Below are positions 17,001-23,000 of a stretch of 64,000 nt of DNA, piece after piece. The first letter of the stretch is position 1. The number at the start of each line of letters is the position of its first letter. The stretch is from an uncultured Verrucomicrobiae bacterium (GTDB taxonomy: Bacteria > Verrucomicrobiota > Verrucomicrobiia > Chthoniobacterales > UBA10450): assembly GCA_963815455.1 (NCBI GenBank), contig CAWFGO010000001.1, positions 800,001-864,000 on the forward strand, given 5' to 3'. The position numbers are program-made.

Positions 17001-20000
17001 TGCGCCCATGCATTCCACCAGCCCGTTCCGCGCGTGGGCAAATCTGACTCCAGTTCGAGTTCAGCGCGGTGCAAACCTTCAAGCGCTTTTTCGAAATCGC
17101 GACGATGAATCCAGCTTAAACCGATTTTCAGCTCCAAACGTGAGCGGGCAATTCGATCGGATTCGGCGACGAGCTTCTCTGCCTGCTCGAATTGATCTCG
17201 CGCTGGTGCGAATTCGCCGTTCAAGATCAGCACATCTCCAAGTCCTTCACGCAGAGTCGCCATCAAGGCGTCGAAAGAAGCGCCCGCCTGCGATTCAGCC
17301 TGCGCAAGAGCGGAACGATAAAAACCGATCGCTTCCAAATTTGAAAAGGTTTCGCGAGCGCGGTCGGCCGCCCGGATAAAGTAAGTGATCGCTTTATCGG
17401 GCACACCGGCTAGCTCGAAATGGCGGCCAAGAACTCCGGACAACTCAGCCAGGCGATCGGGTAGCAGCGTTTCAACCGCTTCTCCCACATGCCGGTGCCA
17501 CTCCCGGCGGGTGACCTGGAGTAGACTTTGGTAAGCGACTTCGTGCGTAATTGCGTGTTGAAAGGTGTACGTCTGATCAAACGTGGCCCTCGAACCCGCA
17601 ATTTGCTCCAAGTACACAAGATTTCGCCGACATAACTCTTCAATCGTTTCGGGCAATGCATGCTCACCCTGTTTTTTGCAGAGGTGAGCAAGAATCCCAA
17701 TTTGAAAAGTGCGCCCAATGACGGATGCGCGTTGCAGAACTCTCTTGGCTGCGGCTGGCAATGAATCAATTCGGGCGGCGATAACGGCCTGCAACGTCGG
17801 CGGAATATCCGAAATATCGTGAATCGTCATTACCCTGGCGTCTCTGACCGCCCGAACTAATTCTTCCAAAAAAAATGGGTTCCCTTCCGCCCGATTAAGA
17901 ATGGCCTGGCGCGTTTGAGAATCATCAATCTCACCCGCGGCGGCAATGAGGTCAGCGCTTTCGCGAGCCGTCAGTGCCGCGAGTTCGATGACTTGAACAC
18001 ATTTTTTCGGAAGCTGAGCCGCGAGCCGGTTGAGTCGCTCCCACACGTTGCTTTCCCGGCGATAAGCAACAACCACCAGCACGGGAGCGTTAACGACGAT
18101 CGGGGCCAAATGCTCCAGGGCCTGAAGCGATGACGGGTCCGCCCAATGCACGTCCTCCCAAACCAGAACGAGCTTTTCCCGTTGCGCTCGCGCTTCCACA
18201 TAACCTCGAAACGCCTCCAAAATCCGGGTTTGCAGAACTTCAGCGCTCAGGTGTTCGAGTCTCTCAACCCACGGTTGTTGAAGAGGCGCTTCAAGAATAC
18301 GAGCCAAATAAGGATAAATTCGTTCGACCCGGTCCGGGGCCAGCTCAAGAATATTTTCGTGGAATGTGCTGTTGATTTTGTGCGGATCTCCGCCGGGTGT
18401 TGTAGCAAGCAACGCGTGCAAGAGATCGCGCATCATTCGATAACCCGTCGTTTCTGCGTACGAAAGAGCGCGCGTTTCAGCCCAACCGGCAAATCTGCTC
18501 AGTCCACGCGTTTCTAGAACAAGGCGACTTTTCCCCAAACCAGCTTCTCCGGAAATGCAAAGCAGAGTACCGTTACCAGTCTTTAGTTGGGCAATCGCAG
18601 ACTTAATCTTTTGCAGTTCACGTTCCCGTCCGAAAAACGGCGTGCGCTTCGAGATCAGCTCGGCTGTTTTAGGTTCGACCTTCGATTCCAGTAGACGATA
18701 AACCGGAAGCGGCTCGGATTTGCCCTTGAGTTCGAGAGGCGGCAACGCCTCAAATTCGAATAGCGTAGCACCTCGGCGAAATGTTTCCGGGCCTACCAAG
18801 ATTTCATTTTCTCCACACGCATCTTCCAAACGTGCGGCGACGTTCACGGTATCGCCCATGACCGAATAATCCTGACGGCCTCGCGCGCCAACCGCCCCTG
18901 CAATCACGGCGCCAGTATTGATCCCAACGTGCAATCCGAGGCTCAAACCGCGCTCGCCGTTGAACGTTTCCAGCGCTGCGACTAGTTCGAGCGAAGTGCG
19001 CAAGGCACGCTCCGGATCGTTTTCGTGGGCAACCGGTGCGCCGAACAAAATCATAATCGCGTCGCCTAAAAACTTATCGATTGTGCCGCCGTAGCGTTGA
19101 ATCACGGGAACGAACCGCTCAAAGCAGGAATTAACCAGATTGCGGGCTTCTTCTGCCTCCATTTGTTCGGCCAATCGAGTAAAGCCGGAAAGATCCGCAA
19201 ACATCACTGTGACGACCTTGCGTTCGTCGTCATCGCCAGTCTCAAGCCTGGTGGAATGAAGCCTGGCCAGTTGCTCGCGTAACGCTGAGATCGCTGGATC
19301 GACGACAAAGTCGCCTAACAGGGAACGTTGCGCCTCCAGATCGGAAATTGCGCGTTCCAACTGTTCTTTTGTTGCCGGCGTGTCGGCCATGTGGCGAGAA
19401 GGTTTGTCGGATGCTACCCGATCCGCGCCTAAGTTTGAATCTCGTTTGTGCTGGTAACGACCGCCAGAAGAAGAGAAGGGCGCCTTCGTTTCCGAAAGCG
19501 CCCTTCATATTTAGATGGCGGTAAGCCGAATTCTGTCCTCCGAATTTCTTCGGAGCGATGATCATTTATCTCACCCCGCCGAGGCGGGACGCCCGGCGAA
19601 ACCGTGACCGGCGGTCAGCAGCCTTCGCATAAAGCTACGGCTTGCCAAGTAGACCGCCGCTACAGCATGGCCATGATGCGACGATACCCGAGGATCATGA
19701 CCCCGAATTTCTTCGGGGCAGGCGGACCGGCTGTCCTCCCTCTGTTTTGTCTTGCACCGCATGGGGTTTTTCGTGCCTCGCGAATTACTCCGCGAGCGGT
19801 GAGCTCTTACCTCGCCTTTTCACCCTTGCCGTTTCCCAGACACGGGAAGCTGTCAGCTTCCCCTACAGTTGTAGTTGCCAAAGAACCGGCGGTCTTTTTT
19901 CTGTGACACTTTCCGTCACCGCGATTTTTCAACCGTGATGCCCGCGTATTCTACGCGGCATGCTGCCGTATGGTGTTCGGACTTTCCTCTGGCAAATCTT

Positions 20001-23000
20001 GCGATTCACCAGCGATCATCTGCCATCGGCGCATAGTTTAGCACAATCGGTACCGTCGGAAAGGAACAGATCACCCGGCTTTCGAAACACGAGAGGCGCG
20101 CCAGTTGAGTACCGCATAAATGAGATGATAAACGCCGAAGCTAAGGCCCATGAGCGCTGTTGGGACGCCGTCGATCCATTCCTCGATTCTGTTGGCTAGC
20201 ACCGGCACGCTCAGACCGGTTAGAAGGAACGCCCAACCCAGAAGCGCCACTGGTCTCGGAGCGAAAAACGCAGTCGATAGCAGAATCAATCCGTAAAATA
20301 CGATCCAGACTGTGACGAGATCGAGTTCCGTCCCGCCGAGATAGCCGGTAGCAAAGAACCAGCTGGTGAATGCGGCCGGGATCAATGCAAACGGCGCGAC
20401 CGTTCGAAATGTGAGGGTCATCCGCGCCGAGCTGTCGTCGTTCGCGCGGACGGCCCGCTTCAGGAGCCAGGCCGCAATGACAATCGTGAGAAAGAGGACG
20501 TCGAGCCAGGCAAAGGCGAATTCGCGCGGTCGTATGGTCCGATCGAGAAAACGACTGACTTCGTCGTTTACGTAAATCGCACCCGCAGTTAGGATCGACA
20601 GGCCTCCACCGATCAATGCGGCACGGGCAAATATTCCGCGATAAATTTCGCCGCGCGCGACCAATCCACGAATCGTCGCAAGATTTTGCTCAGCCTTTTG
20701 CGTTTCGTTCATGATTAAAAAGGCGCAGGTGCAGTCATGAGGAAAATGACGATCATGGCAAGCCCGATCAGCAGTTTGCCGACCATCCCGGAGAGATTTC
20801 CAAGTAAACTGCCCCAGCCCGCGCGGCCGGCGTCGATCATTTTTTTTCCGGCAATGAACTCACCGGCGATCGCGCCGATCACCGGCCCAAGGAACAAACC
20901 AATGAGGCCAAAGAACAATCCGACAATCGCGCCAAGGATCGCGCCGAATGTTCCCCATCGGGTGGCCCCGAAATATTTCGCGCCGTAATAACCACCCAAA
21001 AAATCGATCGCATAGGTCACGAGGGTCATCAGAACCAGCACCGCGATCACGCTCCAGCCAATGCTTTTCTCCGGGCCGAGCATTACCCGGTGGATGACCG
21101 CGCCGGCCAGAATGATGGTCGTGCCTGGCAAGAACGGCGCGACAGTGCCGATCAATCCGACGGCAAATAGCACCAGCGTGAAGAACCACCAGAAGAGTTC
21201 CATTGGGTCCGTAAATCGTGAATGGTGAATCGAGAATCGACAAGGTTTCGATGCAACGATTCAACGATGTAACGAATTTCGATCTCCCTTTGACCCCGCC
21301 GATGTCGATCCTATACTGAAAGTCCCCCGTTAAATTCAACCGGAGGATTATTTATGCCCATTGCAGTTGGAACCAAAGCCCCAGATTTTTCCTTACCGAC
21401 CAAGACCGCCGAAGGACCGAAGCAGATCAAACTGAGCGATAATTTCGGGAAGAAGAACACGCTCCTCCTCTTTTTCCCGATGGCGTTCACCGGCGTTTGC
21501 ACGACCGAGATGTGCGAGATTAGCAAGGGCTTGAACGGCTATACCGATCTCAACGCCGCCGTTTACGGGATCAGCGGCGATAACCCGTTCGCGCAGGAAG
21601 CGTGGGCCCAAAAGGAGAAGATCGACGTGTCGCTGCTAAGCGATTACGAACACAAGGTCGCAAGCGCTTACGGCGTCGCATACGACTCGTTCCTGCCTCA
21701 GATAAATCTCGGGATGGGCGGCGTGGCCAAGCGATCCGCGTTCATTATCGACAAGAGCGGCGTGGTTCAATACGCCGAAAGCAACGACGACGCGAAACAG
21801 TTGCCAAATTTCGACAAGATCAAAGCGAAACTGGCGGAGTTGAAATGATCGCTTCCAGCGTTGTCATCCCGAGCAAAGCGAGGGATCTCACGACGTCGGT
21901 GATAATTTGCGAGGTCCTTCGCTTTCGCTCAGGATGACAGACGGATATGAACGACGAATTCAAAACGCTGAAGAAATTCGATGCCGGCAAGGGCCGGGAA
22001 GGATTTCTCCATTCACTGCCCGAGTTGGAGAAACAGGGCATCGGGAAAATTTCGCGGTTGCCGGTTAGCATCCGGATCGTGCTCGAGTCGGTGCTGCGCA
22101 ACTGCGACGGCAAGAAAGTTCGGCGCAAGGATGTCGAGATGCTGGCCAATTGGAACGCGAAGAAGCCGGCGAACGAAGAAATTCCGTTCGTGGTGGCGCG
22201 GATCGTTCTTCAGGATTTTACCGGTGTGCCGCTGGTTGTCGATCTTGCCGCGATGCGCAGCGCGGTGAAACGGGTCGGGGGCGATCCAAAAATCATCGAG
22301 CCGCTGGTGCCGGTCGATCTCGTGGTCGATCACTCGGTCCAGGTGGATTTCTTTGGCTCGGCTCAGGCGTTGCGGCTCAATCTCGACATGGAATTCAAAC
22401 GCAACCGCGAGCGCTATCAGTTTCTCAAGTGGGGCCAGCAGGCATTCCAGACGTTCCAACTCATCCCGCCTGGCATCGGCATCGTTCACCAGGTCAATCT
22501 CGAATACCTCGCGAAAGGAGTGCTTTCGCGAAAAATCGAAAATCGAAATTCGAAATTCGAAATTTTCTTCCCCGATACCCTCGTCGGGACCGATTCGCAC
22601 ACGACCATGATCAACGGGCTCGGCGTGGTCGGTTGGGGCGTCGGTGGAATCGAGGCCGAGGCCGGGATGCTGGGTCAACCGGTTTATATCCTGACTCCCG
22701 AAGTGGTCGGCGTGAATTTGAGCGGACGATTGAAGGAAGGCGTCACCGCGACCGATCTCGTCCTGCACATTACGCAGTTGCTGCGCGCGCAAAAAGTGGT
22801 GGGCAAGTTCGTTGAGTTTTACGGCGAAGGCGCGGCATCGCTGCCGGTGCCGGATCGCGCGACGATCGGGAACATGTCGCCGGAATACGGCGCGACGATG
22901 GGATTTTTCCCGGTCGATGACGAATCGGTTGGCGTATTTGCGCGCGACCGGTCGCACCGATGAGCAATGCGCCGCGTTTGAGAATTATTTCCGCGCCCAA

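Follow-up and report, generated by a model that had tools for sequence, protein, structure and literature searches.

REP hairpins in the peripheral helices of RNase P RNA and in protein loops of a Verrucomicrobiae family

The RNase P RNA gene (rnpB) of an uncultured Verrucomicrobiae bacterium, located in the 64,000-nt stretch of DNA analysed here (the window), contains hairpins that are repeated elsewhere in the genome, which raises the question of what kind of gene this is and how the repeats came to reside in it. The gene matches the RNase P RNA model RF00010 over its full extent (model positions 1-367; 196.5 bits against a cut-off of 100), with an intact core and with inserts at the places given in an earlier note on this DNA. 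It is the only RF00010 match in the genome and is thus single-copy. One copy of rnpA, the protein partner, is encoded as well, and no protein-only RNase P (HARP/PIN_5) was found in the genome, which is 90% complete. By score, core and protein partner the gene encodes a type A RNase P RNA; the predicted loops on both arms of P18 are non-GNRA, so the GNRA loop that makes the L18-P8 contact appears to be missing. The gene had been described as the longest in its family, which held in the small sample used at the time; over a set of 112 family genomes the gene has a median length of 416 nt, and one relative (G068) reaches 536 nt. Our family counts refer to 110 or 112 genomes, with one partial gene (G016) and three second copies left out. 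A 307-bit match was recorded in G073. The genes for tmRNA, SRP RNA, 6S RNA and rRNA were also located in the studied genome.

Table 1. Features of the rnpB locus and of the REP-A-flanked open reading frame in the window
Feature	Position in window	Strand	Basis
rnpB, type A RNase P RNA	19510..20027	-	RF00010 match, 196.5 bits; 518 nt
D-like hairpin forming P19, diverged, common to many relatives	19538..19555	-	Loose pattern in P19 of 12/112
Second P18 arm, formed by an E-type hairpin with non-GNRA loop	19575..19588	-	Predicted fold; 13 genomic loci, all intergenic
REP-B right arm	19609..19616	-	Fold and comparison
REP-B loop, 35 nt, with nested module C (core 19621-19641)	19617..19651	-	33 genomic loci of C
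REP-B GTAG foot and left arm, first P18 arm	19652..19665	-	71 genomic copies of the exact left half
D-type hairpin module added in P16/P17 region	19701..19718	-	41 genomic loci
REP-A, GTAG-footed hairpin at P12 tip, immediately 3' to the former L12 loop	19844..19868	-	Local fold z -4.3; 12 exact genomic loci
Two diverged REP-A copies downstream of RAYT-like ORF	63160..63228	+	Repeat comparison
RAYT-like ORF, 145 aa, HUH-like motif, C-terminus apparently frameshifted; candidate REP-A mover	63237..63674	-	Weak match to TnpA-REP 4er8, E 0.055
REP-A copy upstream of RAYT-like ORF	63675..63699	-	Repeat comparison

Both regions of rnpB in which repeats had been noticed do carry them, and further modules, in P16/P17 and in the second P18 arm, had been missed. 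The region previously taken for a 102-nt insert does contain repeats, but it is not all insertion: it corresponds to the two-armed P18 of the family, whose first arm holds REP-B with module C nested in its loop. This loop is 3 nt long in relatives. Among 112 family RNAs, module C lies within rnpB in the studied genome only, and its nesting is documented by this one assembly alone; the E-type hairpin occurs in seven of the 112, and the D-type module of P16/P17 is missing at the same spot in a genome of the same genus (G001). The inserts form local folds in the predicted structure. Contigs from RNA libraries of two studies cross the P12 REP with rnpB sequence on both sides; these contigs come from relatives, cover the gene incompletely and may include DNA, the best share of words in the RNA runs being 0.20, and none covers the nested part (positions 19604-19647).

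REP-A and REP-B have the hallmarks of GTAG-type REPs, namely a GTAG foot followed by a short palindrome, and dispersed, mostly extragenic copies (55 of 67 genomic loci intergenic for REP-B, 8 of 12 for REP-A), with dimers also seen. REP-B adjoins a Y1_Tnp gene at C3:534002, as expected of a REP with a cognate RAYT. The recurrence of the P12 repeat in the genome was reported correctly (12 exact loci), as was that of a 20-26-nt part of the supposed 102-nt insert (16-mer counts of 10-11; 33 loci by a looser pattern). The claim that the P12 repeat flanks a stand-alone RAYT held as far as the flanking goes, but the open reading frame is only weakly matched as a RAYT, lacks any Pfam match at E≤0.001 and is probably broken. 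Modules D and E have no GTAG foot, and in module C the tetramer lies inside the hairpin; across 16 Y1_Tnp loci, none of the three was seen as the locus's own flanking repeat, and strand-matches adjoin the arms of other repeats in 16 of 33 cases for C and 39 of 82 for D. Reversed control patterns for three modules other than the 20-26-nt part recovered zero to one locus. With lengths of 14-35 nt, the elements resemble the 100-150 bp palindromic RPEs of Rickettsia in behaviour only.

REP-like regions also reside in protein genes. Our census covered 1559 genes of at least 250 aa, retained k-mers that were at least 40% intergenic and used four thresholds. It yielded 86 genes with a REP-like region, 69 of them with an internal site (58-92 over the four thresholds) and 17 with N- or C-terminal regions only; the earlier count was 98, and conserved proteins with REP-family hairpins number in the dozens. 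An orthologue comparison was run on 11 sites and showed clear inserts at nine. In-frame REPs were confirmed by alignment in DnaE, DnaX, Mfd, UvrC, IleRS and LeuRS, while UvrA, FtsK, ArgRS and AlaRS have internal census matches to putative small REPs. Other genes on the original list fared less well: the UvrB region is a heptamer tandem, that of Rho is N-terminal only, and the supposed insert in ClpB is an artefact, with matches lying past the stop used by all four orthologues. We also considered whether an over-represented 11-mer could explain the 98 genes away and rejected this: at k=18 and a count of at least 5, the word accounts for just 34 of 1179 regions, and it would matter only at k≤16. 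An uptake-sequence-like 11-mer is present in the genome and marks a subclade; a search mostly of freely readable papers found no description of it.

Only 15% of REP-like regions lie in genes, though genes make up 83% of the genome (a figure inflated by the filter for k-mers at least 40% intergenic), and sense-strand GTAG feet fall 27 times in one frame, once in another and never in the stop frame. Given this strong depletion, the notion that REPs insert freely as neutral segments was an overstatement. The companion proposal, that REP sites map positions tolerant of insertion, fared better: the same loops of IleRS, DnaX, DnaE and LeuRS were struck by different REP families in different genera, and such repeated strikes mark these loops as tolerant and make them a natural list of insertion-tolerant sites. 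At DnaX, DnaE and LeuRS, the families differ even between the studied genome and G001, and the UvrC element contains D in the former and lacks it in the latter. These loci bear on how REPs spread, since a comparison of sister species reveals replacement at sites already taken. Separately, four whole REPtrons lie in frame within housekeeping genes, with a predicted RAYT domain in AlaRS, MetH, RecG and CarB, and a survey of MetH showed a RAYT-sized gap in G018 too. Our search, again mostly of freely readable papers, found no description of in-frame REPtrons; Quentin 2018 discarded over-long proteins as fusions or errors (PMC6006769).

The hairpins in rnpB had been presented as a trait of this one genome. 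Instead, they form a family-wide pattern at two fixed sites. REP-B occupies the same P18-arm tip in 29 of 110 genomes, representing 14 of 31 genera, always in one orientation, and REP-A occurs in P12 of 11 of 110 genomes, once reversed (G087) and with differing flanks. The REP-B stem is well preserved (225 of 232 stem cells paired, with double changes in G117 and G125), and its foot is paired with the flank in 28 of 29 rnpB copies versus 12 of 57 genomic copies. Similarly, a shared 3' flank word is present in 13 of 29 rnpB copies and 0 of 58 genomic ones, and the right arm takes a fully paired form in 19 of 29 rnpB copies versus a wobble form in 50 of 58 copies of the studied genome. For REP-A, at least seven genomic matches were found in 8 of 11 carriers versus 2 of 19 non-carriers; in G012 and G075, the rnpB copy is the sole one found in the genome. 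In G074, the top of REP-B is replaced by D. In G001, a member of the same genus, rnpB is free of A, B and C while the genome has 22 REP-B matches, which fits a single old insertion only through loss. Gain and loss are inseparable here because the trees are weak: a quick RpoB tree has 4 of 22 branches starred, and the rnpB-core tree, on which genera are not monophyletic, is unsettled and needs 52 changes for 31 genera.

The explanation that we consider likely is that rnpB encodes a working RNase P RNA that accumulated REP hairpins in dispensable outer helices. As part of that explanation, the inserts would form self-contained folds clear of the active site, as nearly neutral passengers, and the role of RNase P would be unchanged. 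Calling them neutral may be wrong, since neither P18 arm is predicted to carry a GNRA loop and, in three other bacteria, the RNA became 6- to 37-fold less efficient as a catalyst when the L18-P8 contact was lost (PMC8457005). P18 loss is known in Chlorobium and Aquificales (PMC8457005), and P18 is wholly missing in 9 of 110 relatives studied here.

A bolder reading, to which we give a minor chance, is that the outer helices of rnpB, like surface loops on essential proteins, serve as standing landing pads, repeatedly rewritten by RAYT-linked hairpin swapping, where a site can be taken, replaced, nested or upgraded to an in-frame REPtron, and that two REPs have been domesticated as structural elements of the ribozyme. 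If so, RNA expansion segments would have a source in mobile hairpins that is still active and can be traced. We regard as somewhat less probable a targeted, recurrent rewriting, in which RAYTs or hairpin recombination favour existing hairpin tips, so that REP-A and REP-B were placed at the two tips many times independently and refreshed from genomic copies. Presence does vary inside 10 genera for REP-B and 8 for REP-A (24 and 9 changes, respectively, on the rnpB-core tree, which has little signal), and many rnpB copies in distant genera are exactly the genomic consensus; the reversed REP-A, the family swaps at protein sites and the loop modules nested in other REPs point the same way. The uniform orientation of REP-B, its flank word missing from genomic copies, its mostly fully paired right arm and the decayed versions in G110, G041 and G081 all argue against such rewriting.

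Natural transformation, with rnpB alleles or short tracts crossing genera and spreading a few original insertions, seems improbable. ComEC is encoded, the uptake-like word marks a subclade, and the genera are mixed on the rnpB-core tree; but that tree has little signal, many REP-B carriers are without the word (G002, G004, G017, G022), and in supported clades carriers sit beside members of their own genus that lack the inserts (G044 with G065, 99; G087 with g8, 96; G075 with g20, 98). Even less credible is the reverse direction, whereby a RAYT captured a native P18 hairpin as its REP: REP-B in rnpB does look old and structurally integrated, but its GTAG-foot build is that of many other REP families outside rnpB, none of 15 RNase P RNAs from other families contains such modules, and G039, from another family, has 15 genomic REP-B matches and none in rnpB. 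An assembly artefact or a dying gene is the least plausible of all, for despite apparent indel errors in the assembly (split ValRS, DnaE and aconitase), the same inserts recur in dozens of independent genomes and the core of this single-copy gene is intact.

If hairpins did accumulate in a working ribozyme, known RAYT biology suggests that RAYT/TnpA-REP enzymes spread their cognate GTAG-footed REPs over the chromosome; REP families are seen flanking their own RAYT gene, in the case of REP-A a weak RAYT-like ORF only. Selection would purge most genic insertions and spare rnpB helix tips and protein loops in a benign frame, in line with the observed depletion and frame bias. REP-B probably arrived in the first P18 arm at an early stage of the family's history, in one or a few events, and may have been assimilated through pairing of its initially single-stranded foot with the 3' flank, as the folding indicates. 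REP-A would have entered P12 later, at least twice. Occupied sites would then turn over through hairpin loss, a swap by another family or the gain of a loop module, patterns that are observed, with the enzyme conjectural; such turnover, including the gain of module C in the REP-B loop, may have brought rnpB to its present length.

Di Nocera 2013 described GTAG-type REPs with one RAYT per family and in-frame copies in UvrA, DnaE2, PurL and others (PMC3733652), and the supplement has 70 rows for Opitutus terrae. The elements studied here share the GTAG foot with a short stem, the dimers, the single RAYT per family and the in-frame copies, and the peptide encoded by the O. terrae GTAG-17 family is of the kind that one family of the studied genome encodes. 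They differ in that PMC3733652 gives no match for RNase P, rnpB or tmRNA, and nested loop modules and in-frame REPtrons were not found in its available portions. Many ORFs of Rickettsia likewise contain palindromic RPEs in frame (85 ORFs in R. felis and 53 in R. bellii), and RNA genes contain them too (three such genes in R. felis, and the tmRNA gene in R. bellii); an old insert in PheT was retained by descent. The RPEs have no known RAYT, and the passages concerned do not name rnpB (PMC1166351, PMC1458961, PMC1779305). The available parts of PMC2267715, PMC3184786 and PMC3117835 held nothing relevant.

With the O. terrae and R. felis precedents, neither the proteome scale nor the REP-like invasion of a structural RNA is new, as had been supposed; repeats in RNA genes and proteins were already known, and the new detail is the family-wide, site-fixed REP pattern in rnpB. 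No direct description of a REP or RPE in RNase P RNA emerged from our search, mostly of freely readable papers. Ogata is said to have listed an RPE in rnpB in 2002. Vioque reportedly showed in 1997 that STRR genomic repeats extend P12 of a functional cyanobacterial RNase P RNA; that case shares a genomic repeat family in P12 with ours, but it concerns a heptamer tandem at one site rather than transposase-associated hairpins. Expansion segments of RNase P RNA grow at the P12 tip and in the vicinity of P18, distant from the tRNA interface, as they do here; the portions available name no source sequence (PMC12974513), whereas here the source is identifiable mobile DNA. The family offers a comparison-dated series for the expansion of a ribozyme, from the empty tip through the fresh, assimilated, nested and replaced REP to the deleted helix, with the source DNA and the likely enzyme in the same genomes.

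REP-type repeats lie inside the RNase P RNA gene (rnpB) of this genome, as the earlier note had proposed, and the observation is genuine and extends beyond one genome. Its proteins, and a REP family that Opitutus terrae also has, suggest that the organism is a soil verrucomicrobium. The gene is single, with no second RF00010 match (cut-off 100 bits) in the whole genome; rnpA was found, and a search of the assembly, which is 90% complete, returned no protein-only RNase P. K-mer counts exceed background in three stretches of rnpB. REP-A and REP-B, two GTAG-footed hairpin repeats, occupy P12 and a P18 arm and recur across the genome, together with smaller repeat hairpins devoid of a terminal foot (modules D and E). 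In relatives the REP-B loop measures 3 nt; nesting of another repeat, module C (33 loci), within the loop has extended it to 35 nt here. Elsewhere, 16 of the 33 module C loci and 39 of 82 module D strand-matches lie next to or within other repeats, and C-like loops also occur in other REP-A and REP-B copies; nesting is thus a genome-wide habit. The folding of the inserts rests on predictions, in which the P12 and P18 stretches self-fold (local folding z of -4.3 and -2.3; -1.9 for P16/17). Immediately downstream of rnpB, inspection by eye shows a gene for a protein of 1073 aa that resembles adenylate/guanylate cyclases and has ATPase and TPR-like regions. Elsewhere, tRNA-like fragments adjoining tRNA-Met carry a D-type hairpin in place of the anticodon arm.

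Positions of rnpB, its inserted repeats and other features discussed in the text
Feature	Position	Strand	Remark
Type A RNase P RNA	window 20027-19510	-	518 nt; 196.5 bits, model 1-367 (cmscan, RF00010)
REP-A	window 19844-19868	-	tip of P12; 12 exact loci
REP-B foot and left arm	window 19652-19665	-	first P18 arm; 71 exact left halves
REP-B right arm	window 19609-19616	-	first P18 arm
D-type hairpin	P16/17 region of rnpB	-	41 loci
E-type hairpin	second P18 arm of rnpB	-	13 loci
Diverged D-like hairpin	P19 of rnpB	-
Cyclase-like protein	window 16169-19390
Candidate RAYT-like ORF	window 63237-63674		flanked by REP-A; weak TnpA-REP match, E 0.055
Y1_Tnp gene	C3:534002		flanked by REP-B
AlaRS	C2:122843-126049		in-frame REPtron
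MetH	C3:169648-174159		in-frame REPtron
RecG	C5:89947-92700		in-frame REPtron
CarB	C1:1469351-1473121		in-frame REPtron
Aconitase	window 21947-24824		split
ValRS	C3:457281-459046		split
DnaE	C3:501441-503798		split
ClpB	C3:151759-154524		passes its stop
tRNA-like fragments	C1:173870-174370
Second RNase P RNA of relative G073 (L096)	C12:83077-83552		307 bits

RF00010 scored above the cut-off in 110 of 121 genomes of the family. Our comparison set held 112 full rnpB genes, one per genome, and the counts use 110, without two flagged as unpublished (G003 and G015), both free of REP-A and REP-B. The shortest gene has 339 nt and the longest 536 nt, with a median of 416 nt; the gene studied here, which the earlier note had ranked longest among 19 in the family, is second longest. 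The tip of the first P18 arm carries REP-B in 29 of the 110 genomes (14 of 31 genera, presence varying within 10), always in the same orientation, and P12 carries REP-A in 11 genomes (nine genera, varying within eight). Within the family set, module C was found inside rnpB of this genome only; A, B and C are all absent from the 402-nt gene of the same-genus relative, and none of A, B, D or E was found in 15 RNase P RNAs from other families. P18 is missing entirely from nine of the 110. A long second P18 arm with a recurrent 11-letter word in its loop was seen in three relatives (loci L120, L177 and L179 of G100, G083 and G068). The far higher-scoring second RNase P RNA of G073 probably belongs to a contaminating contig.

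We consider it likely that RAYTs (Y1_Tnp transposase-like proteins) spread REPs, some of which would have landed in rnpB, persisted solely at dispensable helix tips and become assimilated through pairing, while continuing to be deleted, swapped or nested; observed here are the placement, the predicted folds, the cognate RAYT genes, the depletion in genes, the frame bias and the patterns of replacement, while the enzymes' action, the order of events and the near-neutrality of the inserts are what we infer. Near-neutrality is open to doubt because the predicted fold shows no GNRA loop on either P18 arm, and PMC8457005 reports a 6- to 37-fold effect in vitro in other bacteria for the L18-P8 contact, which such a loop makes; it also describes clades that have lost P18.

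The REP-B stem in rnpB is paired in 225 of 232 cells, with both sides changed in two relatives (G117 and G125). In 28 of 29 rnpB copies its foot is base-paired to the 3' flank, versus 12 of 57 genomic copies, and a shared flank word follows in 13 of 29 versus 0 of 58. Together, these features suggest that REP-B inserted long ago and was assimilated. REP-A seems to be of later date and to have inserted multiple times, since its flanks in P12 differ among carriers, one copy is reversed relative to the other ten, and carriers are richer in genomic matches (at least seven in 8 of 11 carriers versus 2 of 19 non-carriers, kin not being independent). In G012 and G075, REP-A is kept in rnpB and no further genomic copy was found. 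Recurrent, targeted re-writing of the helix tips is a rival reading, which we regard as possible but unlikely.

The REP-B 15-mer is present in 17 of the 21 published genomes of the family, versus 2 of 16 genomes of other families. Carriers of either repeat lie scattered both on a quick RpoB tree and on one built from the rnpB core (24 changes for REP-B, nine for REP-A on the latter); both trees are weak, and gain and loss are indistinguishable on them. Transfer of rnpB alleles between genera is another rival reading, which we think improbable.

Returning to insertion by RAYTs, the genome holds 16 Y1_Tnp matches, and most of the stand-alone genes have copies of a repeat family of their own on their flanks. 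One Y1_Tnp gene is flanked by REP-B, and REP-A flanks a candidate RAYT-like ORF that gave no hit in a Pfam search. That a native rnpB hairpin was instead captured as a REP seems very improbable.

In RNA-library contigs from two studies, rnpB sequence continues on either side of the P12 REP (X2 record 22, for 41 and 35 letters; X3 records 30 and 31, where one side has only 25 letters). These contigs derive from relatives, may include DNA and have far lower depth than REP-free forms; the best RNA run contains no more than 0.20 of the rnpB words, and coverage of the nested part of P18 by the contigs was zero. An artefact is the least probable explanation of all.

Four Y1_Tnp matches are whole REP-RAYT-REP units (REPtrons) in frame, without start or stop, within AlaRS, MetH, RecG and CarB; a literature search found no description of such in-frame units. 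Among 51 genomes examined at the AlaRS loop (61 searched), the unit is present in 11; another 20 have 17-28 aa there, and the remaining 20 hold unrelated inserts of 36-104 aa. The carriers span nine genera and at least two RAYT subtypes, and all 11 RAYT units retain the tyrosine, while 10 of them also keep both HUH histidines.

REPs are depleted within genes: by our own calls (3449 genes, 1559 of at least 250 aa), genes cover 83% of the genome versus 156 of 1038 REP-like regions (15%), counted with a filter that favours intergenic k-mers. The earlier note had listed 98 conserved protein genes with REPs; in-frame inserts are real, and the count becomes 86 genes of at least 250 aa, internal in 69 (85 sites; 58-92 genes across four thresholds). 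ClpB drops out, its sequence being read-through beyond the usual stop. Orthologue alignments covered 11 sites in seven of the 69 genes; at nine sites (four in IleRS, two in Mfd, one each in DnaE, UvrC and LeuRS) at least one relative has a shorter allele, and the DnaX site is a linker variable in all aligned orthologues. Different REP families occupy the same loops in other genera. At the DnaX, DnaE and LeuRS sites the same-genus relative carries another REP family; its UvrC has the element found here, minus module D. Sense-strand GTAG feet fall 27 times in one frame, once in a second and never in the stop frame. On this evidence the inserts at the aligned protein sites are real, and selection probably filters them. 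Separately, heptamer tandem repeats lie in frame in genes such as UvrB and raise the REP counts of k-mer censuses, and the split aconitase, ValRS and DnaE genes and the ClpB read-through are probably assembly indel errors.

The non-palindromic 11-letter word has 1430 copies here, spread over both strands with no replichore bias. Most are genic, in all frames; genes hold 1217, versus 74-87 after synonymous resampling. Among 21 published family genomes, eight have 470-2504 copies, three 116-181 and ten at most 65, and all 16 genomes of other families at most 17. ComEC is present, and the word behaves as a candidate DNA uptake sequence would; our literature search found no paper on it.

No description of RAYT-type REPs within an RNase P RNA came up in a literature search. 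As far as could be searched, two transposase-linked REP families at two fixed rnpB helix tips across one family, structural assimilation of the REP foot, and visible nesting and swapping in rnpB appear to be new. A Rickettsia palindromic element (RPE) was reportedly located in Rickettsia rnpB by Ogata in 2002. The proteome scale of REP insertion, presented as new in the earlier note, is already known: PMC3733652 describes in-frame GTAG REPs, richest in Opitutus terrae (70 supplement rows), and PMC1166351 counts 85 RPEs within ORFs of R. felis and three within its RNA genes. PMC1458961 places one RPE within the tmRNA of R. bellii. With O. terrae, the genome studied here has one REP family in common.
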